Assembly (NCBI GenBank): GCA_051002415.1
Contig: JBPCMI010000140.1
Coordinates: forward strand, 363-64,362
DNA from: Pyrinomonadaceae bacterium
GTDB lineage: Bacteria; Acidobacteriota; Blastocatellia; Pyrinomonadales; Pyrinomonadaceae
DNA: 64,000 nucleotides
Direction of reading: 5' to 3'
A program made the position numbers and the translations under genes. A model generated the notes under the pieces. That model was not told where the DNA came from, ran no database searches, and was given only the letters and a program-made list of their open reading frames with translations. Shown in pieces: positions 10,465 through 32,300 of the stretch (its first letter is position 1; each line of letters opens with the position of its first letter).

Positions 10465-10469
10465 CTCCT

Positions 10470-11132
10470 TTACGGCAGGGCCTCGACGTTAACGAAGAAG
10501 CGGAAGGTTCCTCCCTGCACTACCCCCAAAAGATACCTGACGTTGATCGATGCGCCCGGAGCGACGAAGCCGCCGGGAATCGCAACGACAATACTTGAAT
10601 TTGATCCGCCGCCGGCGACCGCATCGGAAGGACCCTCGAGCGCAGTGCCCCTTATCAAGATCGTTCCGCCATTCGCGGTTGTATCTCCAGACGTAAGCAT
10701 TCGCAAATCGGCTTGTGGTCCTCCCGGCGTGTTGCTAGTGGTGATATCGACAACCCGGAAACGAAGTCGCGTGACAGGCGCACCAGTGCTATTCGTGAAC
10801 TTGCGTCGAATATCCAAAGTGCCAAGCGCCATAGCCCCCGATCCCGGTGTCGTATCGCGCACACGGTTGGGAGGAGCACTCGACGCTTGTGATGGATCAA
10901 TCAACGCAGGTTTCACCGTCGCATTGCGCTGAATCGGACTCACCAGATTTTCCGGACCAGGTCCGCCACGCACTGACAGAATGCCAAACGTGCCTGCCAT
11001 CGTTGAGACAAATTCAAAGTCTGCCGCATTATCTCCTGTGTCTTTGGGCAGGCCAGTGGCTTGAGTCCTTTTAATGGCAACGGCGTCTGCGGCGGCGTGG
11101 GCGGAAACTTTTCCGTGTATTCGCCATCCCAT
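10470..11132 (-). CDS. C-terminal fragment of a frameshifted secreted protein (P1); carries the shared ~175-aa C-terminal module
   Basis: GLPKDTGDNAADFEFV...GGPGPENLVSPIQRNATVK...VTRLRFRVVDITT...FRFFVNVEALP aligns with the C-termini of the 11919, 18160 and 29311 proteins. Overlaps the N-terminal fragment in another frame. Confidence 0.6.
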   Translation of the reverse strand: MGWRIHGKVSAHAAADAVAIKRTQATGLPKDTGDNAADFEFVSTMAGTFGILSVRGGPGPENLVSPIQRNATVKPALIDPSQASSAPPNRVRDTTPGSGAMALGTLDIRRKFTNSTGAPVTRLRFRVVDITTSNTPGGPQADLRMLTSGDTTANGGTILIRGTALEGPSDAVAGGGSNSSIVVAIPGGFVAPGASINVRYLLGVVQGGTFRFFVNVEALP

Positions 11133-11734
11133 TGGAGAGGAGCTGAGAGCGACTGTGCCTGCTGAATGCTGCCTGACGTTCCGTAGATCAAATAGGCGTT
11201 GCTCGGGATGTAGGTGACGATCTCAACGCCTGTGCTTAATAACGCGCTATACCATTCCGGCTTGATAGGACCGGCGAATTGCACCAGGTGCATGCGCTTG
11301 CCGCCAAAGCCGCCGGCATGCTGTCTAAGGCGCTGTACTTCCGCTGTCGTCGTATCAAAAACGCCGGAGTTAAGCATGATCAGGTTGCTCTCATCGCTGA
11401 ACTCGGCGCCCGGCTTGTCGTTTAATGAGCCGGCAAGTGCATCGTTCACTTCCAACAACTTAAAAGTGCCGTAGTCGGCAATAAGGCGCGCCCCCTCAGA
11501 CTCAATTGATTTCGCCAGGGTGCGATCACTAACGATCACTTTATGAACATTTCCCGGACTGCGGTACTTCGCCGCTGAAGACACTCGCGCAGCCACACGG
11601 GCTTCGTCCTGACCCTTCCCTTTGCTCTTCATCGACGTTCGCGGCGTGAAGTCCCAACCGAACAGTACGAAGGCTGCGGCCGCCGCCGCGATCAAGAGGA
11701 TCTTTGATGCGAACAATTTCTGATTACGTTTCAT
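10940..11734 (-). CDS. N-terminal fragment of the same frameshifted secreted protein (P1)
   Basis: ATG 11734 preceded by GGAGA. Signal anchor MKRNQKLFASKILLIAAAAAAFVLFGW. Prodomain-like region HLVQFAGPIKPEWYSALLSTGVEIVTYIPSNAYLIYG. After ~11110 this frame decays into Pro-rich nonsense while the other frame becomes homologous. Confidence 0.55.
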   Translation of the reverse strand: MKRNQKLFASKILLIAAAAAAFVLFGWDFTPRTSMKSKGKGQDEARVAARVSSAAKYRSPGNVHKVIVSDRTLAKSIESEGARLIADYGTFKLLEVNDALAGSLNDKPGAEFSDESNLIMLNSGVFDTTTAEVQRLRQHAGGFGGKRMHLVQFAGPIKPEWYSALLSTGVEIVTYIPSNAYLIYGTSGSIQQAQSLSAPLQWDGEYTEKFPPTPPQTPLPLKGLKPLACPKTQEIMRQTLNLSQRWQARLAFCQCVADLVRKIW

Positions 11735-11918
11735 TGCAGCGGGTCTCCAAGAAGATCCGGTCGCTAGCTCAGTGGACAACAAAGGAATTGAGGGTGCCAA
11801 GGTTATTCAAGGCATGTCTTAAACGGCGTGTGATCCTAAAGTCGTAAGGGGAAGAATCTAAATTGATCCTTCCCCTTAACGTGGTTACGCGCAAGCGGCT
11901 GCTACCGCCTTTGCAGCG

Positions 11919-14900
11919 TTAGGGCAACGCTTCGACGTTTACTAAGAAGCGGAACGTTCCGCTTTGAGACACGCCTACCAGCAACCTGATGTTAATTGAG
12001 GCTCCTGGCGCTAATGGTGTCCCGAGTGTGACAGTGCCCGACGAGAGTGACGTGTTGAGACCCCCGCCTAATGTTGGAATAGGTGGAGTTTCCAGGGCCG
12101 TCCCTCTTAGTTGTTTGGCGCCGGTTCCACAGGGATTGCTACCTGCAGCTATTGCCAGATCGTTTGAGGTCAGGACGCGCAGATCAGCGGTGCCCGGCGG
12201 CGCCAGACTTGTAGTGATGTCAACAACCCTGAAGCGCAGGCGGGTGACCTGACCACCTGTGTTGTTTGTGAACGCGCGCCGCAATTCAAGTGTTCCTAGT
12301 GGCCCAGTAATAGGTACAGGTGTCAGATCGCGAACTCTGTTCGGGTCTGCACTACTGCTGGCGCAAGGGAATATCAGAGACGCTTTAACTGTTGCGTTAC
12401 GTTGAATTGGACTGCTTAGGTTTTCCGGTCCCGGACCACCGAGCCGGCTTCCCATACCGCGCTCAGTTGCCAGCGTGTCCGCGTAAAGAAAATCTGCGGA
12501 ATTGCTGTTTGTGTCCTGAGGTAATCCGCTGACCATGTTCCGGAACAAACTAAAGTCCGACATGCTCATTGGATTACTGAGCGCAGCGTAGCCGGGTCCT
12601 TCTTTGTACAGTGAATTCGCTTCAGCTGTTGAGCCAACAGCGTCGAGCCGGTTCGCCAAAGTGAAGTTCACCGGATTCGACGTATTGAAGAGAGCGATAC
12701 CAACGTTGTCGTTGATACCAGTCGTGTATGTGGCATCTCCGGTGGCTGTCGTGCCGTTGCCGGCCGGATATGAGCCCAGCGAATACGCGGAGGAATTCAC
12801 ACAGAGGTAGTGACCGCGATTCGGTATTACGGTCCCATTGGGAACTGTACAGCGAGCAACGCCGTCGGATGTGGCTACTGCCCACCCCGACGATCCGTCA
12901 CTTGTTGCAATCGTGACGTCAGCCCCGGACTTGTTGTAGAGCTCAATGAACTCATCGTTGTCACCAGCGATACCTCGCAGCCGAAACTCACTGATGATCA
13001 GACCTGAAGCCGAACCTGGGCCAGTCACGGTGACGTTGAAAGTACACGTTGATCCCCCGGCGCCGGTGACTGTTACGGTTGTGATGCCAAGTGGAAGCGT
13101 CGAACCGGAGACCGGATTATAGTTCAACACGCCACAAGCGCCGGCGGGACTAGCCGCCGGATAGTTTACAACCGCGCTCACGCCTCCGCCGTCTGCAGGT
13201 ACCGAGTAACTAGACGGACAAGTGACTGCACAGGATTGCGCATTGCAGATGCTCTGCGTAGTTGTGATGGAAAGATCCCAGCCACCGGCAAAGGTGCCGA
13301 TGTCAGTTCCCGCGTCGTCAACCACGTAGAGACTCCACGTGCCATTCGGATTCAGGTTATTAAATGCAGCCAGCGTTGCTGAGCCTGCTGTTGCCGGATC
13401 GAGATACGGTGCTGCCGGCGCCGGCGCCGGGAATGGGTCCCCGGTTCCATAGTTCGTTGGTCTAAAGCTGCCGGGCGCCGGTGGAGCTCCCGACGAAGGG
13501 AACACCGTAGCTGCGGCATCATCGATTGTGTAGGTTTGACCGGCCCAATCAGTGCCACCGATGACATCTGACATAAGGCTGAATTTCACGCCCGTTGGAC
13601 CAACCAGCAACACATCCACATCTCCCGGGAATGTATGGCTGATTTGCTTGAGCGTAACCGTCACCTTGCTAACCGGGTTCGTCAGACCGGCCACAGTTAT
13701 CGTGGAAGGATACGGATTCGAGGGTGAGCCTGTGGTGGCACCCGTTCCCGTAGCCGGAATCACGATTGCGGCTGGGTTTGAAAAAGTCTGACTGGAAACA
13801 CTTGTAGTGCCCAGCTGGAACGTATAGGTAATCGTTCCCAGATTGATGGCGCCATCCTGAAGCTGCAGCGTTGCGGTGATGTTATTCCCGCAAGTTCCGC
13901 TCGCCACGAAGGTGAACGGCTGCGAGACTGCGGGAGCGCCTACGCTAACCACGCCATAGGTCCGCGTGGGCGTGACCGGAGTGACACCACCACTCGTTTG
14001 CATAGTGGCAACCAGGTTGGAGGTGTTGCCGTCGCCGGAATTAATCAACGGGAAAGTGGCAGTAATAGTCTCACCCGGATCGGGTGCATTGTTAGCTGGA
14101 GTAATACTTTCAGCCGTAATTACGGCAGCGCCCCCTGATTCGATTACCGGAGTGCCGACGACACCGCAGCAGGCAAATGGCTGGCGATTGATTTCCAGCG
14201 TTACGCAGCCGACGGTGCCTGTGTCGATCGCTGCACTGTCTGATACGCGCAACTTCCATGTACCGTTGATTGACTTGCCGGTCATTGCGGAAAGGGGTTC
14301 CTCGGGTTGAAACGTTCCGGCGAAGGGCGGCAGCCCGGCGGAAATCGGATTGGAGGCCGAGTCGTCGAAAATGGTCGGCGTGCCGGAACAGTCGTTGGCT
14401 CCCGTGCCGTAGTTGTCGCCACCGCCCGCTGCGGTGTCGCGGTTGGCTGACAACACCACCTCGGTATTGTCGGGAGCGATCAGGGAGAGCGACAGGTCGC
14501 GGGTAAACGTGTGGTTCAAACGCACGCGTACGTTGACGTCGCCTGCCGCGCCGTTTTGATTGACGAGGATCGGAATATCTACCGAGCTGACGTCGGGAAT
14601 CGGAGTTGCGATATTGCCCGTGGTGTAGACAGTCGGAATGCCAGCTCCAAGCGTGCCGGTGCGTAAGCGATAGACAATCGTGCCGTAGTCAGTTGCGCCA
14701 TCCTGCAACTGCAACGTGATGTCGACAAAGGTTCCGCAAGTGGCACTGACAGTGAAAGTGAAAGGCCGAGACACAGGAGCCGCACCTTGGGCGACCGCTC
14801 CGTAGTTTTGCGGACCAGAGGGGCTCGAAACGCCCCCGGTGGCCTGCAGCGTGCCCACCAGATTTACAGTAGTAGCCCCTGCACCGCCGTCGTTAACAAC

Positions 14901-15437
14901 CGGTAAATTTACCGTTACGGTTTCACCCGGATCGAGGGCATTGTTTCCGGGAGCGCAGCTCTCTGCGGTGATCTCCACATTGCCAGGCTCCAGATCGTTC
15001 TGCGGTACTAGCTGCACATTCTGAATAGTTGTGTTTCCCTGAGTGATAGTGACACCCGGGATCGAGGCACTGGAGTAGCCGGGAGCTGATACCACGAGGG
15101 TATAACTCCCGAGGCCCATCGGGTCGATGTTATAAACGCCACTGCCGTTGGAGCTTCTAATAAAAGGACCTGCCGATACCGAAGCATTCGCGATTGGAGT
15201 ACCGCCAACACTGCTGGTAACGCTGCCAGTCAGTACACCCTTTTGCACTGCCGGACAGGGACCGAATTGGAAAGCGCCGACGCGCGTGTGCCAGCGAGTG
15301 TTGTCAGGAGCTGCGGCCCCGGTGACGTATTGTTGGGTGTACCAGAAAGTACAGTCATCAACCGGATCGACTGTGAGATCTGAATAGTCACCCCAGCGTC
15401 CGGACGAATGAGTTTGAGAGCTGGTGCCGTTGACCAA
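11919..15437 (-). CDS. Large secreted multidomain protein P2, part downstream of an in-frame TGA
   Basis: Carboxypeptidase-regulatory-like segment. Two proprotein-convertase P-domain-like segments (NHTFTRDLSLSLIAPD...GTWKLRVSD; SHTFPGDVDVLLVGPTG...GTWSLYVVDD). HYR-like segment, LTD (LIISEFRLRG...DEFIELYN), and the shared C-terminal module ending FRFLVNVEALP. The frame stays open upstream to TGA 15483-15485, so TTG 15437 is probably not a real start. Confidence 0.75.
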   Translation of the reverse strand: MVNGTSSQTHSSGRWGDYSDLTVDPVDDCTFWYTQQYVTGAAAPDNTRWHTRVGAFQFGPCPAVQKGVLTGSVTSSVGGTPIANASVSAGPFIRSSNGSGVYNIDPMGLGSYTLVVSAPGYSSASIPGVTITQGNTTIQNVQLVPQNDLEPGNVEITAESCAPGNNALDPGETVTVNLPVVNDGGAGATTVNLVGTLQATGGVSSPSGPQNYGAVAQGAAPVSRPFTFTVSATCGTFVDITLQLQDGATDYGTIVYRLRTGTLGAGIPTVYTTGNIATPIPDVSSVDIPILVNQNGAAGDVNVRVRLNHTFTRDLSLSLIAPDNTEVVLSANRDTAAGGGDNYGTGANDCSGTPTIFDDSASNPISAGLPPFAGTFQPEEPLSAMTGKSINGTWKLRVSDSAAIDTGTVGCVTLEINRQPFACCGVVGTPVIESGGAAVITAESITPANNAPDPGETITATFPLINSGDGNTSNLVATMQTSGGVTPVTPTRTYGVVSVGAPAVSQPFTFVASGTCGNNITATLQLQDGAINLGTITYTFQLGTTSVSSQTFSNPAAIVIPATGTGATTGSPSNPYPSTITVAGLTNPVSKVTVTLKQISHTFPGDVDVLLVGPTGVKFSLMSDVIGGTDWAGQTYTIDDAAATVFPSSGAPPAPGSFRPTNYGTGDPFPAPAPAAPYLDPATAGSATLAAFNNLNPNGTWSLYVVDDAGTDIGTFAGGWDLSITTTQSICNAQSCAVTCPSSYSVPADGGGVSAVVNYPAASPAGACGVLNYNPVSGSTLPLGITTVTVTGAGGSTCTFNVTVTGPGSASGLIISEFRLRGIAGDNDEFIELYNKSGADVTIATSDGSSGWAVATSDGVARCTVPNGTVIPNRGHYLCVNSSAYSLGSYPAGNGTTATGDATYTTGINDNVGIALFNTSNPVNFTLANRLDAVGSTAEANSLYKEGPGYAALSNPMSMSDFSLFRNMVSGLPQDTNSNSADFLYADTLATERGMGSRLGGPGPENLSSPIQRNATVKASLIFPCASSSADPNRVRDLTPVPITGPLGTLELRRAFTNNTGGQVTRLRFRVVDITTSLAPPGTADLRVLTSNDLAIAAGSNPCGTGAKQLRGTALETPPIPTLGGGLNTSLSSGTVTLGTPLAPGASINIRLLVGVSQSGTFRFLVNVEALP

Positions 15438-15482
15438 CGTAGCCTCGCCCTGCGCGAGACTGCCGGCGGGATCACCGGCAAG

Positions 15483-17126
15483 TCAGCCGGCGTAGCGAAT
15501 TCCCGGAAACACTGAAGCGCTGGACACCGAGTAACCGACGGCCAGGCTGCCCGCAGCATTCATGGCTGCGCTACCCATCCAGCGATGCGTCGTATCACCA
15601 GGAGCGCCGGACATAGTCCCCTGTTCTTGAACTACGTACGCGCCCGTGGGTGTAGCTTTACGAATCTCGTAATAACGCACTCCAGAGCGGAATGCCGGAT
15701 TTACCGCGGCGTTAACTGAGTGGTTCAGAGCTAAAGATTCATGCGTACCATAGTTGCGATACGCCAGGCGGTTCATCAAACGATCGGAAATAACATCGAC
15801 TGCAACACCCGGAGGAGGTTGCGGGATGATATTGCGGGAGCCGGGTGGGACTTCGCGCGAATCAAACGCAGCTACCGCGAGAGGACTGCCGGTCCGTTCG
15901 AGCAGAGTCGAATTAGCGGGGACTGCAAAGTCAGCATGAAAATCAAAGATACGAAGCGAGTCAGTCGCACCAAATTCATCAGCGTCAAACTGGATGAAAG
16001 GAGCCGGCGCGCCCGCCGGCGGCGGTGTGAAGCCGTCGATGTCGCCGGGTAACATGCCACCGAATTGACAGGCTCCCGGACATCCTTCCGCCTTATCGAA
16101 ATAGATGAAGCCCGCAGTCGGATCGCCGGCAAGCATTTTTGTGCGATCAAACGCGAAGAGACCGGCGCCGAGGAACTGAGTGCCCGCCTGGTTGAATTGG
16201 TTGTCGGTCATGTAATAACCATCAGACCAGACACCAAATTTTGGGTAGTCGTTGAACTTGTTGTTCGGCATCATAAAATCATAGAGATAGTATGCGCCGG
16301 TGGGATCTCCTGTCTGCGAGACCGCGATCAGTTGGTGATTGTTTGGGTTTGCTACCACGCAGAATTCGGAAAGAATCCAGCGGTCAGCCAATTGATCGTA
16401 GAGCACGATCGGATCCCCGTCCTCGCTGTTGGCGCAGGGACCAGGAATTGAGCTAAAGAGCGCGCCAATACTCGTAAGTGGAATCACCGGCGTTCCAGTG
16501 CGGTTGTAGATGCGGAAGGCACTGTTCACCATCTGCACAAAGTGATTCGGTCCGATCTCGCCGACGGTATCCGGCGGCAGGAAACCCTGACCAGGTAGTG
16601 CGGTGGTATCTGTTAGTGAAATCGACTCAAAGCTGACAGTCGGAGTCGGCATCACGCGCGGCGTGATCGATCGATCGTTGCCGGGCACGCGAGCGATCGC
16701 TGCATCCGGCTCAGTCTTCATTTCAGGATCGCCTTTGCGAATAATTTCCGCATTACGGCGATTCTTCTCAGAGACCTCGTCTTCGCGCGACTCGGCGCGG
16801 CCGCCTTTGCCACCGCTGATGCTCTGTTCACGGGCCTTTTCGATCAGCTCTTCGTGGTTCTTGACCGGCGCTCTTCGTGCCTGTGCGGGTGAGAGTCGCT
16901 CTTGCGCCGCTGCCAACTCGCGCACCGTCGGAGAGATCCCAAAGTTGACTGCCTGCGCCGACATTACCCCAGGGTTCCACTCGCGCGCAGCTTTGTCGTT
17001 AGCCAGCTTTTCCTGATCAATTCGTTTTCGGGCTTTCTCGTTTCTCTTAGCGCCGGTTAACGGCGGCAGGATCAGGGCTACAAACAACAGACCAACGGCC
17101 AAGCCAAACACCAGGAACTTTCTCAT
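15483..17126 (-). CDS. N-terminal part of P2, ending at the in-frame TGA
   Basis: ATG 17126 with an AAGGAGAG SD. Signal anchor MRKFLVFGLAVGLLFVALILPP, a charged linker, then a large globular region ending ...VFPGIRYAG-TGA. Same reading frame as ORF 11919-15437. Confidence 0.7.
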   Translation of the reverse strand: MRKFLVFGLAVGLLFVALILPPLTGAKRNEKARKRIDQEKLANDKAAREWNPGVMSAQAVNFGISPTVRELAAAQERLSPAQARRAPVKNHEELIEKAREQSISGGKGGRAESREDEVSEKNRRNAEIIRKGDPEMKTEPDAAIARVPGNDRSITPRVMPTPTVSFESISLTDTTALPGQGFLPPDTVGEIGPNHFVQMVNSAFRIYNRTGTPVIPLTSIGALFSSIPGPCANSEDGDPIVLYDQLADRWILSEFCVVANPNNHQLIAVSQTGDPTGAYYLYDFMMPNNKFNDYPKFGVWSDGYYMTDNQFNQAGTQFLGAGLFAFDRTKMLAGDPTAGFIYFDKAEGCPGACQFGGMLPGDIDGFTPPPAGAPAPFIQFDADEFGATDSLRIFDFHADFAVPANSTLLERTGSPLAVAAFDSREVPPGSRNIIPQPPPGVAVDVISDRLMNRLAYRNYGTHESLALNHSVNAAVNPAFRSGVRYYEIRKATPTGAYVVQEQGTMSGAPGDTTHRWMGSAAMNAAGSLAVGYSVSSASVFPGIRYAG

Positions 17127-17646
17127 AGGGAAAACTCTCCTTTGCATGAAGCTGCAACTCCTAGAGACAGCAGCTGCGGGGTCAATCGAGTGGACGGCTG
17201 AAAGAGAACGCGTGAACACCACACAGCTTCAGGCCGCCAGGGGAATGGGCAGACTAAAGAGGCATGGAAGCGATGGTTTGTCTTCAAAAAACGCGTACTG
17301 ACCGGAGGCAGTGAAAATGCCTACGACACAGAATTAAGGTGGAACTTCAAGAGACGCCTGCGTGTGCGCGGAACCTGGTCGCGAGATGGATTGGGACGGT
17401 AGCTGTTTCGCGAGCCGGGGGATTCCCACGTGAGCATTCCTTGTACTTAGAAAGAAAAGTAAATTACGATTCAGCGATAGTAATGCGAGGCAGGTGCAAG
17501 CAAAGATGGCTTCGCGACCCTTTAGATTCGACGACAGAACGTCGGGACTATAACCGCACCTAAGTGCGTATGTCAATGTTGATCCTTTTCGTTTCATCAC
17601 GCGACTGATTGGCTTGAATAGAGCCGCCGAACAAGGAGGTACTAAC

Positions 17647-18093: not shown

Positions 18094-18127
18094 CCAACGA
18101 CGCTGCGGTTGGACGTTCAGAATGAAA

Positions 18128-18155
18128 GGGAGAAGCACAAGCGCTTCTCCCTTTT
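18128..18155 (+). terminator. Bidirectional intrinsic terminator between convergent genes
   Basis: Perfect 9-bp stem gggagaagc/gcttctccc with a 6-nt loop, followed by TTTT and preceded by AAA. Confidence 0.65.
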
Positions 18156-18159
18156 AATT

Positions 18160-21100
18160 CTAAAAGATCACCTTTTTCACAGGGTTAGGTTGGGATCCAC
18201 TCGGCAGCGCCTCTACATTTAATAGGAAGCGAAAGTTACCGCCCTGTTGGACTCCGAGCAGGAACTGCACGTTAATTGAAGCGCCCGGCGCGAGTGGGGA
18301 CGCAAGCGTAATCGTCCCGGCTGACGCGGAGGAATTAAGTCCACCGCCAAGGGTTTGAGTCGGAGGCTGCTCCAAAGTTGTGCCTTCGATCATAATAACG
18401 CTTCCTGGTCCCGCGCATCCTCCTCCGCTCCCAACGCAAGTAGCGGTAAAACTGCTCGAAGTAAACAGTCGCAGGTCAGCGTTGCCCGCAGCGGGAGGCA
18501 GAGACCTCATGTCTACAGCTCGGAAACGCAATCGCGTCACCGGGGACCCAGTATTGTTCTTGAAGGTGCGGCGGATCGATAGCGTACCCAGAGTCGCATT
18601 CGTTCCGGGTGTGGTGTCGCGATGCCGCGCGCAAGTTGTGTTCGAAGCCGCGCCGGCGCCACTGCTGTTGGCGCAGGCGATGTCAACAAGGGAAGCCTTG
18701 ATAGTAGCGTTGCGCTGTAAGGGACTCAAAAGATTTTCAGGTCCTGGCGCGCCCAGATGACGCCCACCGATAGTGCCGTCGGCGGTAGCGCCTGTCGCAC
18801 AACCCACAACAAACAAGCAAGTGGCCTGTGTGTCGACAATCACAAAATCGGCAAGATTGTTGTCAGTATCCTTCGGCGTACCCGTGCTCAAATTGCGAGT
18901 CAGACTGTGGTCAGTGGAAGCCGTCGTGATGAGACTCGGATAGCCAATGCCTTCCTTGTAGAGCGTGTTCGCTTCGCTGTCAGATCCGACAGCGTCAATG
19001 CGATTGGCCAACGTGTAACTCGCGCCGCCAGTCGCATTGTTAAAGATAGCGATTCCGGCGTTGTCCACAATCTCAGTGGTGTACGTCGCATCTCCGAGTG
19101 CGGTCGTGCCATTGCCGGCCGGATACGACGCTAGCGAGTAGCCTCCTGAGTTGACACATAAATAATGCCCACCGTTCGGGATCACCGTTCCGTTCGGAAT
19201 GGTGCAACGCGTAACGCCGTCGGAAGCGGCTACGCCGAGACCTGACGAAGCATCTGCGGCCTGCGCAGTAATAGCCGCACCGCTCGCGTTATAGACCTCA
19301 ATGAACTCGTCGCTGATGCCGTTAGATCCGCGAAGACGGAATTCGCTGATAACCAAATTACCGGCACTTAGAAGAACCAGCTCATCAGCACCGATATCCG
19401 GTGTTGTTGCGGAACGAGTCTGGTCGTCAAAGTCGTTTGTAACACCACCCGCGGGAGTACCTGCATTTAGAACGGGCGTGGCAGTTGGTTTCAAGTGCAA
19501 GTCGCCTGTAGCTGCATTAACGAAGAAGTCTGAGACATTGAAACTCGCTGCTGTGTTGGCTATGGAGTTCGCGTCCCGCGCAGGCGGTCCTGCCTGCCAC
19601 GTGGCAAACGAAACCGGAGTGGCTGTTGACGAGGTTGAGAGGTCCATGAAGTTTGCAGCAGTTGCACCCGTCCCGGCAAAGAAATTGAAATTGGAAACAA
19701 ATGTTCCAGTGTTCACCGATTGATCACCTCCGGCGAAGTGATTACCCGTGCCGCCGGTGCGACTGTTGAAACAGAGGTTGTCGATTGCCGTATAAGTGGT
19801 CGGCGCACTGAATCCGCGCTGGCAGGCCCAGCTATTTGCAGTTCCCGATCCGGTTCCACCAATCAGGGCAGTGTTGAAGTAGGCACTAAACGTATTTCCC
19901 GCAAAACCGAAGTCCCTAATTCCGAAGATGCTCTGAGCGTTAGTAAAGCTCGGAACGATCGACACCATATTATTAACGACCGACAAATTCGCGGGGTTAC
20001 CACTTGAGCCGTTAGATTGGATTCCGGTTAACGTACCCGTTGAACCGCTGGTGCTCGGGAAATTATAGATACGGTTCTGAGATACCGTGGTCGCGCGAAC
20101 ATCGTTAAATTGCATGCCGCTGGTGCCGAGAGTAGTGGTTAAATCGTGAACCTTGTTTTCGGAGAACAGGTTGGTCCCACCTGCACTATTCACCGCTACA
20201 CCAAACAGAGAAGTCGTTCTTGCCGCTGTCTGAAAGATATCGTTGTTAGTAACAGTCACGTCGTCGCTCATTCCGACAAGGATACCCGCCTGCGTAAAGT
20301 TAATAATCTGATTGTTGTTAATCAGAATATTAGTATTCGAAACGGTAGCGGATGATCCAATCAGGTTAATTACGTTGAACGGCACGCTGACCGCGTCGGT
20401 CCTGTCACGAATTATGTTTCCGACAATCTGAATATTGTCGTTACCCGTCGTAACGCCGGTACTGATGAACAGCACACTGCTCGTGCCGCCGCCTTCCAGC
20501 GTAGTGTTCTGGAGGGTGTTAGTAGACGCGTCGTTGATGTAACGAACGGCAGTTCCGGTGCCTGCCGTGGTGTTTCTAATGGTCAGAGAGTTGCCGCCTG
20601 TATTCAGACCATCAATGACCACGCCATCGGCGCCGCTAAAATCAAGCAAGACCACTGCGCTGCCTCCGGAAATCAGACGCGCTGCCCCGCCGCTCGGCAG
20701 AATTGTTACGGTAAAGCCTCCGCCGAATTCATTCAGTGAAATTGCCCCTGACTCGGTTGTCAAATCGGAGGTAATGTTGACTGTCAGATTGGCAGACAGT
20801 GCTCCGTTGTTAATTGCCTCAAACAATCCGCCAGGATTTGTCAAAGACGTAAAGGTTTCGCCTGAGCCAACATTCACCGCACTGCCGAATGTAACTGAAT
20901 TCAGAATCGTCAAAACGGCCGAGCTGGGAGTTCCGAGGGTTGCGCCCGTCGGGTTCGACAAGGCAAGATTAACGGTCTCACTACCTTCAACGACTCCATC
21001 GCTGCAGAGCGTGACGTTGAAAGTTTTTGTTGCGAAATCATTATCGGCCCAGTTAAAAGTTCCCGAAGTATTGATGTAATCAACTCCGGCTGTACAAGAC

Positions 21101-22935
21101 GCGCCGCCCGTTGCCGAGCCTCCGGCAACCGTGGCGAAGTCAACCGAGGCTGCACCGCTAGCGCCGCCTGTGCGCGTAACGCTAATAGTCACCACGCCGG
21201 AAGCTTCAGTAACAGTGTAGGTCGCGGAACTGAACTGGACTGTTCCTCCGGAGGGATAGAATTCATCAGCGCCGATGTCCGGAGCAGCGCCATTGGGTCG
21301 CACCTGGGAGTCGATATCGTCGGCGATCCCTGCGATGGTGGTTCCCATGTCAATGTTAGGTGAGAGCGGCGCCAGATGAAGGTTGCTGGTAGTTGAGAAG
21401 TAAAGCGGGTCTACCTGCTTGGAATTAGCATCCTGCGGGGTGGTTAGAGCCGCCTGCCAGTTTGCCAAGGTTTGAAACGACGTAGTAGCGGTATTCCCCG
21501 ACCCGATAGTGGAAAAGCCGCCGGTTCGCAACTGCGTATTCGCCGGGTTGATGTAATAGTTGTTGAAATTCAGGCCACCGGTTCCAAAGCTGTAAGCGGC
21601 GGCATTTAAAGTAATCGCATAATAAAAATTGGCCGCTGTGTTTGAATTCACATCCAGATAGATGCTGTTATTCATCAACGTCAGATTTGCGTTGTTGCTG
21701 CTGTTTGCCTGCGTCACGCGAATCGCGTTGGCGTAAGTTGACGCTGACGCCGCCGCGCCAGGATCCATGTCGCCGGTCAGACTGATCGAGTTGAAAACAA
21801 TTCTATCCGTATGTCCGTTGGCGTAACCGATAGCTACAACCTGGTCGCCAGCCGTTGCATCGGCGCGGATGTTGTAGACAAAGTTATTCGCTACCAGGTT
21901 ATTAGTAGCTGCTCCACCACGGGTGGTTCCGAGTCTGATACCGATTGCCGAGAAAGTTCTCTCCTCGACAATGTCGTGAATAACATTCTTCGTTACTGTG
22001 TAATCGCCGCTCGTAATAGTCGTCGATTCGGTGACACTCCAGTTTTCTCCGCCGATGCAGATGCCACAGCGGTCTGCGCCTGCCGTCGTATTAGCCAAAT
22101 CGCCACCCACGAACTGAACCGTGTTGCGTGAGACCAGCGCGCCGGTGTCCGCTTGCAGGTAAATTCCGGCTTTACCGATTGCGTCAGCGCCGAACGATGC
22201 CGGACCGATAACATTGTCTGTAATAACAAGACCTTCGTTGTTGTTAGTAGTTACGCCCCTGGTCGCCAGACCGTACCGCGCTCTTGTGATCCGGTTGAAG
22301 ATGAATTGATTGTTGTCGTTGTCGTTGCCATCCGTGGCTATAAGGCTAATCGTCGTGCCTCCCATTAAAACGCCGACGGTCGCATTGGTATTGACGTTTG
22401 CCGTCGCGCCCGCCGCAATTTCAAGATTGCGGATCACGTTGTTGCTTGCGCCATTACCAGCTGCGACGCTAGCTAACCAGATGGCAACCGTCGCCGACGC
22501 CGTGCTGTTATTGCGAACAGTCAAGTCGCGATTTGTTCCTGAACCCCCGATGCGCCCATCAATCGTGACATTGTCTGCCCCATTCAGTTTTATGATTGCG
22601 CCCACGATGGTACCGCTTACCGAAACTCCCGGAGCCGTTGGTCGAATCGTTATCGTCGCCCAGTCACCAGCGTTTAGCGCTGCCGTGGCAGTTTCCGTCG
22701 TGCTCGCCGCTATATCGATAGTGATGTTGTTGCCGGTCTGGACGGCGTTCGCATTAATTGCATCGAAAGCGGCTTTCAAAGTTGTATAGCCGCCGTTTGC
22801 GCCAGTTGAACCCGCCACGGTGACCTGGGCCGACGCGGTCGCGGTCATCAACGTCAATGCCGCAATCAGAGTTATCAACGCCGACGCCAGTCGCGCTCCA
22901 AGCAATGCGGAGCCGGGACTCATAGTTCTCTTCAT
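18160..22935 (-). CDS. Large secreted protein P3: parallel beta-helix repeats + Calx-beta-like + LTD + shared C-terminal module
   Basis: Signal peptide (LITLIAALTLMTATASA). Long runs of N/G/T-rich beta-helix-type repeats (NNxIxN). Calx-beta-like VQFSSATYTVTEASGVVTISV...VDYINTSGTFNW. LTD LVISEFRLRG...DEFIEVYN. Module ...FRFLLNVEALP plus a 13-aa tail. Start at 22935, 22974 or 22923. Confidence 0.8.
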   Translation of the reverse strand: MKRTMSPGSALLGARLASALITLIAALTLMTATASAQVTVAGSTGANGGYTTLKAAFDAINANAVQTGNNITIDIAASTTETATAALNAGDWATITIRPTAPGVSVSGTIVGAIIKLNGADNVTIDGRIGGSGTNRDLTVRNNSTASATVAIWLASVAAGNGASNNVIRNLEIAAGATANVNTNATVGVLMGGTTISLIATDGNDNDNNQFIFNRITRARYGLATRGVTTNNNEGLVITDNVIGPASFGADAIGKAGIYLQADTGALVSRNTVQFVGGDLANTTAGADRCGICIGGENWSVTESTTITSGDYTVTKNVIHDIVEERTFSAIGIRLGTTRGGAATNNLVANNFVYNIRADATAGDQVVAIGYANGHTDRIVFNSISLTGDMDPGAAASASTYANAIRVTQANSSNNANLTLMNNSIYLDVNSNTAANFYYAITLNAAAYSFGTGGLNFNNYYINPANTQLRTGGFSTIGSGNTATTSFQTLANWQAALTTPQDANSKQVDPLYFSTTSNLHLAPLSPNIDMGTTIAGIADDIDSQVRPNGAAPDIGADEFYPSGGTVQFSSATYTVTEASGVVTISVTRTGGASGAASVDFATVAGGSATGGASCTAGVDYINTSGTFNWADNDFATKTFNVTLCSDGVVEGSETVNLALSNPTGATLGTPSSAVLTILNSVTFGSAVNVGSGETFTSLTNPGGLFEAINNGALSANLTVNITSDLTTESGAISLNEFGGGFTVTILPSGGAARLISGGSAVVLLDFSGADGVVIDGLNTGGNSLTIRNTTAGTGTAVRYINDASTNTLQNTTLEGGGTSSVLFISTGVTTGNDNIQIVGNIIRDRTDAVSVPFNVINLIGSSATVSNTNILINNNQIINFTQAGILVGMSDDVTVTNNDIFQTAARTTSLFGVAVNSAGGTNLFSENKVHDLTTTLGTSGMQFNDVRATTVSQNRIYNFPSTSGSTGTLTGIQSNGSSGNPANLSVVNNMVSIVPSFTNAQSIFGIRDFGFAGNTFSAYFNTALIGGTGSGTANSWACQRGFSAPTTYTAIDNLCFNSRTGGTGNHFAGGDQSVNTGTFVSNFNFFAGTGATAANFMDLSTSSTATPVSFATWQAGPPARDANSIANTAASFNVSDFFVNAATGDLHLKPTATPVLNAGTPAGGVTNDFDDQTRSATTPDIGADELVLLSAGNLVISEFRLRGSNGISDEFIEVYNASGAAITAQAADASSGLGVAASDGVTRCTIPNGTVIPNGGHYLCVNSGGYSLASYPAGNGTTALGDATYTTEIVDNAGIAIFNNATGGASYTLANRIDAVGSDSEANTLYKEGIGYPSLITTASTDHSLTRNLSTGTPKDTDNNLADFVIVDTQATCLFVVGCATGATADGTIGGRHLGAPGPENLLSPLQRNATIKASLVDIACANSSGAGAASNTTCARHRDTTPGTNATLGTLSIRRTFKNNTGSPVTRLRFRAVDMRSLPPAAGNADLRLFTSSSFTATCVGSGGGCAGPGSVIMIEGTTLEQPPTQTLGGGLNSSASAGTITLASPLAPGASINVQFLLGVQQGGNFRFLLNVEALPSGSQPNPVKKVIF

Positions 22936-23409
22936 TGTTTGGTTCGATGCGAAATTAGTTGGCGAAACTCTCATCGTGGTCGTCTCCTCGGTGGGGCCAG
23001 AATTCCAAAGTCGTCACTGCGGATGCAGCCGAACTATGTCGTTGGAGCGGGGACAGAACCTCTTATCAGGTTCCGAACAGTAACGGGTTGGTTAAACTTC
23101 TTAAGGTTCTGGTGGGCGCGTGTTAATTCGGTCCATCCAGAGCGCTGTTGCTGAAAGCTAAACTTCTTTGCTGTTTGGGTGGGTTTATTAAGTGAGTTTA
23201 TCCAAACAGCTCAGTGCTGAAAGCTTATTCTGGAATATGGCAAAAAGCGGAAGATTGTTAGGCACACAAAATACACACCTCGCCGGAGTAAGGCAAGACT
23301 TTCGGACAACCGTCAAGCTTGAAGACTTCAATACCAGGCAGAGCTTAAAAAAGCAGGAGATAGTAGCGGTAGATGATTCCAATCAAGTGTCGAGAAGTTT
23401 GGAAAGCAA

Positions 23410-25233: not shown

Positions 25234-25357
25234 CGGGAAGTGGAAGGGGGAATGGGAAGGGGGGAACAGGGGAACTACCCATCAAACACGTTTCGCCGTT
25301 CCCTGTTCCCCTCTTCCCCCTCTTCCCCTTTTCCCCCTTTCCCCTGTTCCCCTGTTG
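25231..25357. repeat. Inverted pair of GGGGAAC/GGGAAGG-type arrays in a divergent intergenic region
   Basis: caacgggaagtggaagggggaatgggaaggggggaacaggggaac ... gttccctgttcccctcttccccctcttccccttttccccctttcccctgttcccctgttg. Confidence 0.65.
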
Positions 25358-25408
25358 ACTCTTGCCCTTCCCCCTTTTCCGTCTGCGCTTTTATACTCGC
25401 CGCGCACA

Positions 25409-27221: not shown

Positions 27222-27250
27222 CTTTGCCTGGTTCTTTGAGTGAATGACTC

Positions 27251-29167
27251 TTGAGTGAATTGCCTTCACAACGCGGGCGGACTCGGTGGCGACTAGGTGT
27301 CCTTGCGGCAGTAGCCATGGTCTGCTTAGCGCTGTTGCCACAGTTTCATCTTTGGGTTATCCGGGGGGACGACTGGCAGGGTACCTTCGTCTCGTTTGAT
27401 TTTGACGAGGTTGCATACGCTTCGTATTTGAATGCGCTAATTGACGGACGACCGCGTCGTAATGATCCCTATACCGGTCGTGACGATAGTCCTCAGCAAC
27501 CCCGCGCGGAATCACTGCATTCAATTCAATTTCTCGCGGCATATGCCGCAGCCTTGCCTGCTCGCGCTCTTGGCTTCTCCGCCGGAACAACTTTTATCAT
27601 TATCCGCGCGCTAGCCGCGTTTGCTTCGACGCTGGCGCTCTTCTGGTTATTGCTGTTGCTGACACGCGATCAGCACATCGCTGTGGCCGGCGCTGTTATC
27701 GTCCTTTGTCTCGGCGGAATCGCCGGTGAGACTCACAACGCCTGGCGCATTATTACGCTGCGCGGTACGGGAGAGTCGTTACCATTTCTGCGCGGCTATG
27801 TTCCGGCGCTAGTGTTCCCGCTTTTTTTCCTCCTTGTAGCCCTCGTTTGGCAAGCTTTGCAGAATCGGGCTCCTGTGCGGCGGGCAGCAGTTGCAGGCGT
27901 GGCCCTCGCGATTCTGATCTTTTCTTACTTTTTCCTTTGGACAGCGACGCTTGCCTGGCTGGTCTTGATCGCATTGCTTTGGTTAAGTACACCTCGCAAG
28001 GCTAAGCGAGATGCTCTCCTTGTTTTTGGGATCATCGGCGCCTGCGCTGCAATTACCCTCGTGCCTTACGCACTCCTGCTGGCGCGCCGCGCGCCGAGTG
28101 TTGACTCTGCACAACTGCTTACTCATTCGCGAATGCCGACCGTGAGTCTTCCGGTCATGATTGGTTTGCTTGTTTTAATCGTTCTGGTGATAGCCGTGCG
28201 ATGGCGCTGGCTGAGTTGGAGCACGCCATCCGTTCTCTTCACTGCATCATTCGCCCTCTTGCCGGTAGTCACTTTCAACCAGCAGGTGATCACCGGCTTG
28301 TTGTTACAACCTGTGCATTACGGTCGTTACGTTGCTAATTACGCAGGCCTGCTCGCAGTCTTCCTGGCTTTGGTGATGATCTGGGATCGAAAACAAACAA
28401 CCAGCTTCGCACCGCTTTTTGGAGTGCGCCGGCTTGACGGCGCTTTGGTTTTCGTAAGTCCTCCTCCAACTCGGGACAAAAAGCGGCGACTATTCTCCGC
28501 ACTCCAAAAACTGGCTTCCTGGGCCCCAAAACGAAAGCTATTGTTATTAACACTTGTGATTTTTGGCTGGGCAATGTTGGAAACTGGAGTGAGAAGCGCA
28601 AGGTTTGAAAGCCATAACATCGCGCGGGATGAAGCCGAACGCGTTGCCTGGCGACTGCGCGAGCTTTCTACCCAGCCACGAACATCCGGCGCTAACTATG
28701 AAGCGGTAGTTTTCTCTAGCGACATTTTGTTAGGTGACACTTTGCCGAACGTGGCGCCGCAGCCGGTGCTGTGGACGCCACATCTTTTTGTTTTCTCGGG
28801 TGCATCCGCGGAAGAGAATCGCGAACGGCTTTATCAACAGCTCTATTATTCCGGAACTGATGAGCAACAGTTCGCTGCCCTCGCCGGGAGCTCCAGCTTC
28901 TTGCAGCTGGCGCTCTTTGGTTGGGAACGGATGAATCAAAAAACTCATACGCTCGGTATCACGAGTGAAGATGTGCGACAGGAGACCTTGCACTTCGCGG
29001 AGTATGTTCGCGACTTCGATGCGCGGAAGGCAGCCACGCCGACACTTGAATTCGTAGTAGTGCCGGCGGCGAGTGGACCGTCATTAACAAATCTCGATCG
29101 CTGGTACGAACGAGATGTGGGAGAGAGGGTTGGCGACTACGTGATCTATCGAAGCCGGAGGAGATGA
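27251..29167 (+). CDS. GT-C/PMT-like polytopic membrane protein (intact paralogue)
   Basis: The first-loop motif FDFDEVAYASYLNAL resembles the GT39 (PMT) loop-1 DE motif (FDEVHFGKF...Y). Multiple TM helices and a C-terminal soluble domain. Confidence 0.55.
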   Translation: MSELPSQRGRTRWRLGVLAAVAMVCLALLPQFHLWVIRGDDWQGTFVSFDFDEVAYASYLNALIDGRPRRNDPYTGRDDSPQQPRAESLHSIQFLAAYAAALPARALGFSAGTTFIIIRALAAFASTLALFWLLLLLTRDQHIAVAGAVIVLCLGGIAGETHNAWRIITLRGTGESLPFLRGYVPALVFPLFFLLVALVWQALQNRAPVRRAAVAGVALAILIFSYFFLWTATLAWLVLIALLWLSTPRKAKRDALLVFGIIGACAAITLVPYALLLARRAPSVDSAQLLTHSRMPTVSLPVMIGLLVLIVLVIAVRWRWLSWSTPSVLFTASFALLPVVTFNQQVITGLLLQPVHYGRYVANYAGLLAVFLALVMIWDRKQTTSFAPLFGVRRLDGALVFVSPPPTRDKKRRLFSALQKLASWAPKRKLLLLTLVIFGWAMLETGVRSARFESHNIARDEAERVAWRLRELSTQPRTSGANYEAVVFSSDILLGDTLPNVAPQPVLWTPHLFVFSGASAEENRERLYQQLYYSGTDEQQFAALAGSSSFLQLALFGWERMNQKTHTLGITSEDVRQETLHFAEYVRDFDARKAATPTLEFVVVPAASGPSLTNLDRWYERDVGERVGDYVIYRSRRR

Positions 29168-29306
29168 AGTTTCAAGTTTCAAGTTTCAGGTTTCAGGTTT
29201 CAAGTTTCAGGGAATCACGCAGAACTAAACAACCTCGGAACCCTAAAGACGAAACCTTCTCTCTGGAACGCGAAACTTGAAACCTGAAACCTGAAACCTG
29301 AAACTC
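29168..29306. repeat. Inverted pair of GTTTCAG/GTTTCAA (29168-29212) and CTGAAAC (29271-29306) heptamer arrays between convergent genes
   Basis: agtttcaagtttcaagtttcaggtttcaggtttcaagtttcaggg ... cgaaacttgaaacctgaaacctgaaacctgaaactc. Starts right after the stop at 29165-29167 and ends 4 nt before the stop of the 29311 gene. Confidence 0.7.
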
Positions 29307-29310
29307 TCTT

Positions 29311-32300
29311 TTAAGGCAGCGCTTCCACGTTCACGAAGAAGCGGAACGTGCCACCCTGCTGTACCCCAAGCAAGAATCTCAGATCGATTGAAGCACCCGC
29401 GCCGAGCGGTGTTCCGAGCGTTACGGTGTCCATCGACAATGAGGAGTTCAGTCCACCCCCGATAATTTGATTAGGTGGTTCTTCCAGCGTGCTGCCTCTA
29501 AGCGTTAGTGCGCCGGTGCCGCACGGGTTGTTACCTGACGCGACTGGCACGTCGCTCGACGTGATCGCGCGTAGGTCAGCTGTTCCCGGCGGCGCAACTG
29601 CGGTTGTGATATCTACGATGCGGAACCGCAAGCGCGTAATGCTGCCGCCTGTATGGTTCGTGAACTTGCGCCGGATGTCGAGAGTTCCCAGTGAACCATT
29701 GAATACCGGAGTTAGGTCGCGAATCCGATTCGGACTAGCGCTGCTCTGAACACATGGGAAAACCAACGACGCTTTAATTGTTGCGTTGCGTTGAATAGGA
29801 CTTGAGAGGTTCTCCGGTCCCGGTGCTCCGAGGTGAGCGCCGGCACCGGCATCAGTAGCCTGGGTGTCGACGAACACAAAGTCCGCGGGGTTCACGTTAG
29901 TGTCCTTAGGTAGTCCTGATGACAGGTTGCGTACCCAGCTATGTTGCGAACTGATCGCGGGATTGAGCGCCGGATAGCCGGTGCCCTCTTTGTAAAGCGT
30001 GTTGGCTTCACTAGCCGAGCCTACAGCGTCAAGTCGATTAGCCAGTACAAAGTTAGAGGCAAGCGAAGTGTTGAATAACGCAATGCCGGCGTTATCCGGG
30101 ATGTCGTTCGTGTAGCTGATGTCGCCACTTGCAGACGTTCCATTGCCGGCTGGATAACCTGCCAGCGAATAGCCGAGCGAGTTGACGCCCAGGTAATGCC
30201 CGCGGGCGGGAATGACGGTACCGTTCGGAATAGTGAAGCGGGCGACGCCGTCGGAAGCTACAACCGACCAGCCGCTGGTACCGTCAGTCGTCGACACTAC
30301 GATTGCTGCGTTAGTGTTGTTGTAAATCTCAACAAACTCATCGGTTGCAGCTTGCGAAATAGTTCCGTTCGGCTCGGGTGAAGTACCTACAGGTCCAGGG
30401 CCACGTAACCGGAACTCGCTTATCAAAACAGACCCAAGGGGCTGAGCGCCGAGTGAAAAATAGGCAACGGGCATGTCATGATCCGAATTTCGCTCCGGGC
30501 GCGCGGCGTTAGAAACGAAGGCTGCCGCCGGGAATTCCGGAAAATCGGCGTTGTTGCGCGCGATCGCGATGCGCGTCTTGCGCCCGTTGGCTACCGTGTT
30601 GACGAGCACGTGATCGAGCGCCTGAGGCGTACCCTCGAAGATGAAACTGTAACGCTCGTCGGCCGGCAGGTCGTCAATCAAGTTAATGAAGTTCGGGTTC
30701 ACAAGATCGGGACTCTGATCAACGACGATCTGATCGTCGGGCGTCGGGTTGCCCTTGATAACAGAGAGGGGATCGGTGTAGCCGTCGTTGAATTGATAAG
30801 CGTTGTAGTCGCCGACGGAGATCACACTGGTCCCGGGGTTACCAGACTGCAAATCCTGCAGCAAGTCGGCTAGAAATTCGGCCTGTGCCGTGCGTTTGGC
30901 GCGGACGCGCGGACCCTCACCGGTAACCAACTCAATGTCGATGAACGAGCGTAGGTGGTTGACGACAACGATGACCGGCAAATTAACGCCAAGAGGCTGA
31001 ACGCGCGCGCGGAGTACGAGCGGCGGACGGTCGTTAAGATATGCGGGTTGCCCGTTGGTTGGGTCAATATAGGTATTGCAGGTAGCTGCGTTACCGAGGC
31101 ATCCGGCGAGTTCGATCTGCGTGACGCTATCGACTTGAACACGCGCGGTGTTGACGAGATAGCCAACGTCTTGATCGGCGTCTCCAGTCGTGCTGTCGGC
31201 TTCGACGAGGAAGGCTTGGTAAGAAACACCCGGCGCGATCGCGTTGACCTCGGCGGCGAGGGCTTGCAGACCGGTAAGTTCGAAGATTTCGGCATGCCCG
31301 ATGATGTCGGGCAGTTTCATCACGTCGCGGATGGCGAGCGCGGCTTTCTGACGTTGCGTTGCGTTGTTGTTAAAGTTTTCGATATTGAAACCGGCCACGG
31401 TAAATTCCGTCGACGTAGGGGTCGGCACCGGGACGGCGCTCATATTAGCCGAAGCGATTAAGCTGGTTTCGGGAATGAGCCGATACCGACCAAAAGCAAA
31501 ATCGAGCGGCCCTGCAATGCTCGAGAACGTCACGTTCGACGTGTAAGCATTGATCGCCGAGCCCGCTCGCCCGTTTGTATCCACGGACAAGCGTTCGGGG
31601 TTTTCGTCCCAGCGGGGAATGCAACAGTCAGGCGTGCCCGAAGTCGGATCTGGTGGCACCGGTTGCGAGATTTCAATGCCTGGCTCACGGAGCGGGCGCG
31701 GCACACTGCTGAGTACTGTATCAACGTCGAAAAACTCGTCATTCGGAGCTACCGTATTGAGCGAAGCGGAACTCATCCGCATGCCTTCATACTTTTCGAG
31801 TTGCGGCTGCGTGGGTGGCGCAGTTGGATCAAGGATGGTCGCAGTTAGCACGATGGCATCCGGTAGCCCGTTTCCCGTAGAGTTGACTATAACACTCGAA
31901 ACGGGACTGATCTCCGTCAACCCGTTAAACTCGACGGCAGTACCCGTCACGGTCACGTTGTCGCCGACAGCGACCGTCGGGACGGAAGTGGTGAAAACGA
32001 AGATACCTTCGGACGTGTTCGGGTCGGCGTCGTTAGTGGCCGTTGGCTCTTGCAAGAAGAAGCCGCTGGCCGCGCCGCCGTTGTTAGTGCTGGTCCTGAG
32101 CAACGTGACGATGCCCGTGGTCGTTACAGCCTGACCGGCGAGAGGCGACGTCGCGCCGCTACCCTGTATCTGGTTAATTTTGACGGGCGTGCTATTGATT
32201 ACCGTGAAGTCGAAGACGTAATCCAGCGCCATGTTGTTGGGCGTCCCGTCTTGATCCGCGACCTGGGCCGCCACGACTGTGACCGTGCAGATTTCGCCTT

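Follow-up and report, generated by a model that had tools for sequence, protein, structure and literature searches.

A lamin tail domain and an undescribed beta-sandwich domain form a terminal didomain of secreted Pyrinomonadaceae proteins, a candidate binding or tethering unit

What role might a protein module serve when it is carried by secreted proteins of otherwise unrelated composition? The question is raised by a 64,000-nucleotide stretch from the genome of a Pyrinomonadaceae bacterium (contig JBPCMI010000140.1), here called the window, in which a C-terminal module of ~165–197 amino acids (aa) closes exactly four genes, P1 to P4, all on the minus strand. The copies were delineated from translations of the open reading frames (ORFs) and their alignment, and are listed below with the E-values of a hidden Markov model (HMM) search.

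10470..10967, minus strand: P1 module, 165 aa and stop (HMM E 4e-77)
11919..12440, minus strand: P2 module, 173 aa and stop (HMM E 1e-93)
18160..18753, minus strand: P3 module, 184 aa, a 13-aa Pro/Lys-rich tail and stop (HMM E 1e-86)
29311..29829, minus strand: P4 module, 172 aa and stop, GAPGPENL...FRFFVNVEALP (HMM E 8e-100)

All four copies start with the motif G[GA]PGPENL.SP[IL]QRNAT and end with FRF[FL][VL]NVEALP followed by the stop codon, which in P3 only comes after 13 residues that lie beyond the shared end (SGSQPNPVKKVIF). The alignment contains 78 invariant columns, and with P4 as the reference the protein identity of the other copies is 62–72%. The P1 module is the most divergent and lacks both a Cys pair and an 11-residue loop found in the alignment. 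A six-frame HMM scan of the 64 kb returned these four copies only, with E-values (4e-77 to 8e-100) far beyond chance. A first-pass annotation, made by eye, had described one C-terminal module in four secreted proteins, 13 extra residues in P3, and a moderate nucleotide identity that did not suggest recent duplicates; the translations, the alignment, the six-frame scan and the DNA identities support it on these points. Since the pairwise DNA identity of the copies is about 50–62% without gene-conversion tracts, the four are old paralogues, and recent duplication or gene conversion among P1 to P4 is ruled out by the same identity and the lack of high-identity tracts. The sole similar DNA 3' of the P1 and P4 stops is a short heptamer-repeat stretch.

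The same annotation placed a lamin tail domain (LTD) before the module in P2, P3 and P4, in agreement with matches to the Pfam family PF00932 and with the alignment. A remnant is also present in P1.

12441..13013, minus strand: P2 LTD, residues 809–999 of ORF 11919–15437 (Pfam E 8e-8, 33.0 bits)
18754..19368, minus strand: P3 LTD, residues 1203–1407 (Pfam E 1e-3, 19.7 bits)
29830..30441, minus strand: P4 LTD, residues 958–1161 (Pfam E 3.6e-11, 43.8 bits)
10968..11078, minus strand: P1 LTD remnant (last strand or strands) and linker, aligning with the C-terminal end of the P2–P4 LTDs

Against the PF00932 gathering score of 34.3, the P4 LTD lies above and the P2 and P3 LTDs lie below; both are homologous to the P4 LTD along its full length when aligned. 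Among P2 to P4, the similarity between LTDs equals the similarity between modules. In P1, the LTD is reduced to its last strand or strands (AIKRTQATGLPKDTGDNAADFEFV) and the remainder is absent. The PF00932 matches fall on the domain upstream of the module only.

The association of the two domains was followed in an exhaustive module search of 1.84 billion representative proteins, which gave 1,788 clusters (at 50% identity) at E≤1e-3 and 1,026 at E≤1e-30. The 148 best representative proteins hold 159 module matches, of which 148 have an adjacent LTD according to a narrow LTD HMM built for this analysis. Seven full-length modules had no match to the LTD HMM; in the five of these that were read by eye, a more divergent LTD (LISELRTSGP...DEFVEIYNN) was seen directly upstream. 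Three further matches begin too near the protein N-terminus to be judged, and the remaining one is a split match in P0215, a protein that carries an LTD. By the overall count, the single match with no LTD immediately before it is a fragment that starts at residue 1. Pfam itself detected an LTD in 43/47 and 45/52 of the relatives. Conversely, no LTD of this subtype was found without the module among the 148 representatives. A predicted structure of the P4 LTD and module together (376 aa) is one compact body with a predicted local distance difference test (pLDDT) score of 84.9 and a predicted template modelling (pTM) score of 0.85. In a Foldseek search with this model, the LTD half alone matches the immunoglobulin (Ig) folds of lamin A/C and B1 (probability 0.99–1.0, TMt 0.54–0.59); thus, the upstream domain is an LTD both by its Pfam match and by its Ig-like lamin-tail fold. 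The halves differ in charge, with a median isoelectric point (pI) of 4.4 for the acidic LTD and 9.0 for the basic module. Since nearly all module matches pair with an LTD, no such LTD stands without the module, and the joint model is compact, the repeated unit is a didomain of about 370 aa rather than the module alone, which the first-pass annotation had taken as the sharing unit. The survey shows that this LTD subfamily, a large one with about 1,800 clusters (50% identity), works only as a fixed pair with the module.

The module itself has no match in Pfam-A 2025, even at E≤10, in NCBIfam r20, or, by sequence profile, in PDB 2026. Literature searches found no description of it, and its relatives are named 'hypothetical protein' or 'lamin tail domain-containing protein' in the source databases. 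An AlphaFold2 model of the P4 module calculated with 50 homologues (pLDDT 84.4, pTM 0.80) is all-beta with eleven strands. When searched against the PDB with Foldseek, this model identified nothing significant (best E 0.017, TM ≤0.41). The top of the weak list is made up of carbohydrate-binding modules (CBMs), chitin-binding domains, TasA and integrin sandwiches; the best match is the CBM of Cthe_0271 (PDB: 6sl4, E 0.017, TM 0.35–0.39, not significant), and a Pyrococcus chitin-binding domain (PDB: 2czn) is also among the best, non-significant matches. That the module is a diverged second LTD was ruled out by an hhalign comparison of 141 modules with 126 adjacent LTDs, which gave a probability of 0.4% and an E-value of 0.13 over 11 columns. 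Membership of a known family was rejected as well, the Pfam, NCBIfam, PDB profile and Foldseek results being negative or insignificant. A match to a described domain was the outcome set beforehand as refuting the first-pass proposal, and none was found in Pfam, NCBIfam, the PDB or Foldseek. Since there is no sequence match in Pfam, NCBIfam or the PDB and no significant fold match, the module is, according to its predicted structure, an undescribed beta-sandwich domain of ~175 aa. It is termed X, and the didomain LTD-X. In proteins with an identity of only about 55%, X retains about 58 columns at ≥80% conservation, seven Arg among them. Two columns of a variable loop are occupied by Cys, in 65% and 46% of modules.

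The position of LTD-X was surveyed in the 148 best representatives. The last residue of the module is the end of the protein in 87/148, and in 12/148 the module is followed by a short Pro/Lys-rich tail (11–30 aa) that resembles the basic tail of P3. The module lies elsewhere, internally or N-terminally, in 37/148, two LTD-X units are present in 10/148, and 2/148 have no full-length module match. Taken together, LTD-X is at or near the C-terminus in 99/148 representatives as opposed to 47/148 in which it follows the signal peptide, is in tandem or is internal. In most of the 37 proteins of the internal or N-terminal class the LTD lies close to the signal peptide, at a distance of between a few and some tens of residues or, in many, with none in between, and other domains come after X. 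Stand-alone proteins composed of a signal peptide and LTD-X also occur (e.g. P0130). P0207 is matched, in its didomain part, by numerous clusters with lengths of about 500 aa and about 820 aa; a member of the 820-aa class that was checked, P0125, is a tandem LTD-X-LTD-X. N-terminal, tandem or lone forms account for about one third of the clusters, some of which are named from Pyrinomonadaceae. Module identity is 57% within the C-terminal and internal classes and 53% between them, and the two do not form separate clades.

An autonomous binding or tethering head is favoured because LTD-X is found at either extreme end of proteins, on unrelated cargo, and also alone. SLH domains, CBMs and similar non-covalent anchors are likewise terminal, carried by varied cargo, and also found alone. 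With a little less than even confidence, LTD-X may therefore be considered an autonomous terminal didomain for binding or tethering, with a putative and probably polymeric ligand. After Sec export, LTD-X would act as an autonomous, non-covalent binding head and would tether the fused cargo to a common extracellular target, either a cell-surface or matrix polymer or extracellular DNA. Enzymes and adhesin-like repeats would thereby be held near the cell. LTD-X itself would be neither an export nor a sorting signal, and domain shuffling would have spread it over many genes, including the one to four LTD-X genes that are held by a conserved chromosomal island.

Several observations weigh against this proposal. 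Instead of contacting an anionic polymer, the arginines conserved in X may simply be paired with the acidic LTD; they could equally well face a polyanion or the LTD. The fold matches of X to CBMs are not significant. On proteins that are anchored to the cell at their C-terminus, an N-terminal LTD-X would point outward, which fits an external target better than the surface of the cell itself. Among C-terminal copies, about 90% have their stop immediately after ...EALP (91/100 modules in related loci), and of all blocks the last strand differs most in conservation between the C-terminal and the internal copies, which plain binding does not predict. The exact end and the conservation of the last strand hint at recognition of a free C-terminus.

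These last observations lead to the question of sorting. The first-pass annotation had likened the module to sorting or anchoring domains. Of this idea, the conserved terminal unit on mixed cargo stands, while the likeness to strictly C-terminal signals does not (47/148 elsewhere); an anchoring or binding role of the module is plausible. The annotation's observation that the module has no transmembrane segment and no known sorting motif was confirmed by the translations and NCBIfam. With respect to known signals, a close comparison is the C-terminal sorting domain (CTD) of the type IX secretion system (T9SS; PF18962 / TIGR04183), which is also a beta-sandwich at the extreme C-terminus of unrelated secreted cargo. 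LTD-X is about four times larger, and also occurs N-terminally, in tandem and alone. P1 to P4 had no match to PF18962 / TIGR04183, nor had the module alone at Pfam E≤10, and no T9SS machinery genes (PorK/L/M/N, SprA, PorU/V) are present within the 64-kb window. PEP-CTERM, IPTL-CTERM and GlyGly-CTERM gave no NCBIfam match in P1 to P4, which end in ...FRF.VNVEALP without a hydrophobic stretch. A further point of reference is the 'choice-of-anchor' domains, a name that NCBIfam gives to domains on proteins ending in different anchors. One of these (NF041518) is present in P3, and like the N-terminal type of LTD-X they are found on proteins with differing C-terminal anchors or secretion signals. 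In contrast, X matches no such NCBIfam model and its dominant form in Pyrinomonadaceae is C-terminal and without an anchor signal.

It might still be supposed that the C-terminal LTD-X, with its invariant ...NVEALP-COOH, is a recognition tag for a dedicated outer-membrane translocation or surface-attachment pathway of Pyrinomonadaceae in the manner of the T9SS CTD. The stop codon follows the module directly in 91/100 modules of 80 related loci, in addition to the extreme C-terminal module of 99/148 representatives. In most proteins, conservation is lowest among the terminal residues. In LTD-X, the last block (RFFVNVEALP) shows the largest difference between classes, with a top-residue frequency of 0.74 in C-terminal and 0.55 in internal copies and an entropy difference of 0.91 bit per column, and the first strand (PIQRNATI) shows the second largest (0.56 bit); the conservation of both strands is thus specific to the C-terminal subtype. 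The difference in the last block and the identical stop residue of about 90% of C-terminal copies suggest an importance of the free C-terminus for the copies expanded in Pyrinomonadaceae. The highly diverse cargo and the many paralogues per lineage, several of them clustered, would also fit a tag. However, an equally similar domain follows the signal peptide, is in tandem or stands alone in about one third of clusters, and on single proteins it coexists with IPTL-CTERM, T9SS and RTX signals. Some proteins of the N-terminal type end in an IPTL-CTERM (26.2 bits, cut-off 20.5), in a T9SS type A signal or in RTX repeats, and Por_Secre_tail is found together with LTD-X on the same protein in two representatives. 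At 370 aa, the didomain is far above the size of any known sorting tag, and no candidate machinery was found adjoining the genes, their flanks being RiPP-like (ribosomally synthesized and post-translationally modified peptide) and housekeeping. Because of the N-terminal, tandem and stand-alone forms and the genuine sorting signals on the same proteins, LTD-X is not a classical C-terminal sorting signal. A T9SS-like recognition tag is considered unlikely, and there is an equally small chance that the C-terminal subtype serves as the tag of a novel surface-display or secretion pathway built from a pre-existing binding didomain.

A binding or tethering didomain may be further considered in terms of the organisms and the cargo in which it occurs. 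At least 572 loci are present in species-representative genomes, almost all of them metagenome-assembled genomes (MAGs) of Pyrinomonadaceae or Blastocatellia, and the names returned agree; the family is greatly expanded in Pyrinomonadaceae. LTD-X is also present in a protein from a Bacteroidota MAG (P0196) and in an IPTL-CTERM protein (P0144) with GGDEF/EAL, Tex and HDOD neighbours, from which its contig is possibly proteobacterial. A 'hypothetical protein' of 1,144 aa is encoded on plasmid pIAD-21 of Abditibacteriota bacterium IAD-21 (L084, AP024153.1, 4740–8174); its LTD-X is N-terminal and 31% identical to the P4 didomain over 98% of the query. The enzymes among the cargo are ExeM/NucH- and NS-type nucleases (the latter as an Endonuclease_NS fusion) and M36 and S8 peptidases, and proprotein-convertase P-domains are found as well. 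Further cargo consists of Calx-beta (15/52), cadherin-like, Big_9, HYR, DUF11, FG-GAP, Kelch and GSDH domains. Among the partners, no glycoside hydrolase ranks within the 25 most frequent Pfam families. The common denominator of the cargo is an extracytoplasmic location and not a substrate; evidence for this location comes from the signal peptides of the window proteins and from the Cys-rich columns in the variable loop of X.

The role of bacterial LTDs is unsettled; targeting to membrane-associated structures and DNA binding have both been proposed, and removal of the LTD partly reduces the activity of ExeM in vitro (PMC6085458; PMC4486849). In bacterial LTD (PF00932) proteins such as ExeM/NucH, the LTD is likewise Ig-like and is carried by Sec-exported hydrolases and by repeat proteins. 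In ExeM the LTD is N-terminal and alone, whereas here a distinct LTD subtype is always followed by X and is C-terminal in the window genes. These proteins suggest another account, namely that LTD-X is an accessory unit for binding extracellular DNA, recruited by nucleases of the ExeM/NucH type first and by other genes afterwards. Such nucleases include P4 and its orthologues, which are widespread, an Endonuclease_NS fusion exists, and X is basic; the proposed DNA binding by LTDs and the contribution of the LTD to ExeM activity in vitro (PMC6085458; PMC4486849) point the same way. However, most of the cargo is non-nucleolytic (Calx-beta in 15/52, proteases, cadherin-like, HYR, DUF11, FG-GAP), the LTD half is strongly acidic (pI 4.4), and Foldseek found no similarity to known DNA-binding folds. 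This account is regarded as very improbable.

A structural or assembly role has also to be weighed, in which LTD-X would be a terminal cap, a stalk, an oligomerisation unit or a folding aid with no external ligand. Analogues are the strand-mediated dimerisation of lamin Ig domains and the pre-peptidase C-terminal domain as a folding aid. The didomain is compact and confidently modelled, it occurs in tandem and alone, and the complementary charges of its two halves are in keeping with a self-contained unit. Sandwiches of the TasA fibre, pilin and cohesin-like types are among the weak Foldseek matches; every one of these fold matches, however, is insignificant (E≥0.017). In addition, about 58 columns at ≥80% conservation with seven Arg are more than a spacer usually needs, and LTD-X is located at the very ends of proteins and not repeated along stalks. 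This role is considered rather improbable. Compared to CBMs, chitin-binding domains and PPC, which are likewise all-beta modules of 100–190 aa appended to secreted enzymes, X differs in that the fold matches are not significant (E≥0.017, TM 0.35–0.41), the cargo of LTD-X extends beyond glycoside hydrolases and peptidases, and an obligate LTD partner is no feature of those modules.

The genes of the window that carry LTD-X are as follows.

10940..11800, minus strand: P1 5' part (signal peptide and prodomain-like region), from a three-frame translation; its frame differs from that of the module
11919..17222, minus strand: P2, one gene, 1,766 codons long; ORFs 15483–17222 and 11919–15437 are in the same frame
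18160..22974, minus strand: P3, 1604 aa; signal peptide, beta-helix-like repeats, choice-of-anchor Q (NF041518), Calx-beta, LTD and module
29311..33312, minus strand: P4, 1333 aa; ExeM/NucH-type extracellular nuclease, LTD and module

Signal peptides are present in the upstream parts of P1 and P2 and in P3, and one is likely on P4. P4 matches the NCBIfam model NF033681 (E 1e-40), has Big_5 and LTD matches in Pfam, and is 74% identical to the representative P0234. P2, which has Pfam matches, is composed of a signal peptide, a BNR-like WGDYSD region, a CarboxypepD_reg domain, two P-domains, and the LTD and module. The N-terminal architectures in the first-pass annotation hold for the P-domain and CarboxypepD_reg of P2, the Calx-beta and choice-of-anchor Q of P3 and the ExeM/NucH nuclease with Big_5 of P4; the HYR domain assigned to P2 had no match at E≤0.01. 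Similarly, the P-domain, LTD and module it described for P2 are present, and the ORF it described is only the 3' part of the 1,766-codon gene. The prodomain-like region from which it named P1 exists; it lies in another frame, in ORF 10940–11800.

Two of the four genes in the island, P1 and P2, are disrupted. In P1, the module ORF (10470–11132) and the ORF with the signal peptide and prodomain-like region (10940–11800) are in different frames with the break within 10940–11132 on the minus strand. Since the two parts are read in different frames, P1 is frameshifted, and it looks like a frameshifted and partly deleted gene; the frameshift reflects either a pseudogene or an assembly error. The P2 gene is interrupted by an in-frame TGA at 15483–15485 on the minus strand. 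At this position, five orthologous loci (L005, L039, L002, L044 and L064; 77–87% identical) encode an Arg (RYAGRL), and the TGA is explained either by a nonsense mutation from CGA or by an error of sequencing.

A conserved order of genes was identified in 42/80 related loci: an unknown gene, an HPr-kinase-like gene, a radical SAM gene, one to three LTD-X genes and a Transglut_core3 gene. The LTD-X genes of an island share one orientation, and Transglut_core3 is convergent in nearly all 42 loci. The corresponding genes and others in the window are listed below.

36427–37488, minus strand: homologue of the unknown island gene
34882–35943, minus strand: HPr-kinase-like gene
33778..34872, minus strand: radical SAM gene (PF04055 E 1e-23), upstream island border; 36 related loci have it upstream of their first module gene
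9831..10334, plus strand: Transglut_core3 (lasso-peptide B2-like) gene (PF13471 E 1.3e-14), downstream island border
37721–38926, minus strand: NTP_transf_5 gene
23410–25233, minus strand; 25355–26698, plus strand; 27251–29167, plus strand: large polytopic membrane-protein ORFs between P3 and P4, no Pfam match

The Transglut_core3 gene is just downstream of the last module gene in 42/80 related loci. Most genomes have one LTD-X gene per island (the P4 orthologue), several have two (a P4-type and a P2-type), and one has three. The island of the window contains four LTD-X genes and the three membrane-protein ORFs. The LTD-X genes sit inside a conserved RiPP-like (lasso-type) set made up of the NTP_transf_5, unknown, HPr-kinase-like and radical SAM genes on one side (33778–38926, minus strand) and the Transglut_core3 gene on the other (9831–10334, plus strand). 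The remainder of the window is ordinary chromosome with dnaX, G6PD/OpcA, lepA, addAB and a sigma-54 two-component pair.

Two candidate partners within the island were rejected. The three membrane-protein ORFs were considered as possible machinery, but Pfam gave no match to them, and since homologues are absent from all 80 related loci they are not a conserved partner and have the appearance of a genome-specific insertion. ORFs 25355–26698 and 27251–29167 are paralogues with a common YASY[VL]NALIDGRPRRNDPYTG motif, and the former overlaps ORF 26205–27221 and may be frameshifted. The second candidate, a 168-aa ORF at 9858–10364 on the minus strand, is an antisense shadow of the Transglut_core3 gene at 9831–10334 on the plus strand. 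Its tblastn matches in about 40 related loci have a mean of 59 bits as opposed to 138 bits for the plus-strand gene, and the case illustrates how apparent conservation can arise for an antisense ORF.

Many of the intergenic spacers hold tandem arrays of heptamers, with the units GTTTCAG, CTGCCTT, ATTGGCG, ACTCCTG and others. Examples of the arrays are as follows.

338–387, 5923–6087, 10414–10465, 29167–29304, 40795–40929, 53406–53534 and 58359–58417: heptamer arrays

The arrays are often paired in inverted orientation and could form long hairpins, for example directly 3' of the P4 stop; a single similar array is located 3' of P1. They resemble the heptameric short tandemly repeated repetitive (STRR) sequences of cyanobacteria.

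With respect to what is new, LTD-bearing secreted proteins were known beforehand, and the domain family and a handle on bacterial LTD function are added to them; no new mechanism is described. X would fill a gap among the domain models of Pfam and InterPro. Bacterial LTDs are widespread on secreted hydrolases, and LTD-X provides a defined, confidently modelled unit for ligand-binding tests. The protein of pIAD-21 comes from a cultured isolate and is a possible experimental handle outside the Acidobacteriota. Should the C-terminal subtype be a sorting tag, it would represent a new route of surface display in Acidobacteriota. Pyrinomonadaceae are an abundant and barely studied soil lineage. The LTD-X pair would account for the 'hypothetical' C-terminal 370 residues of hundreds of their large secreted proteins.

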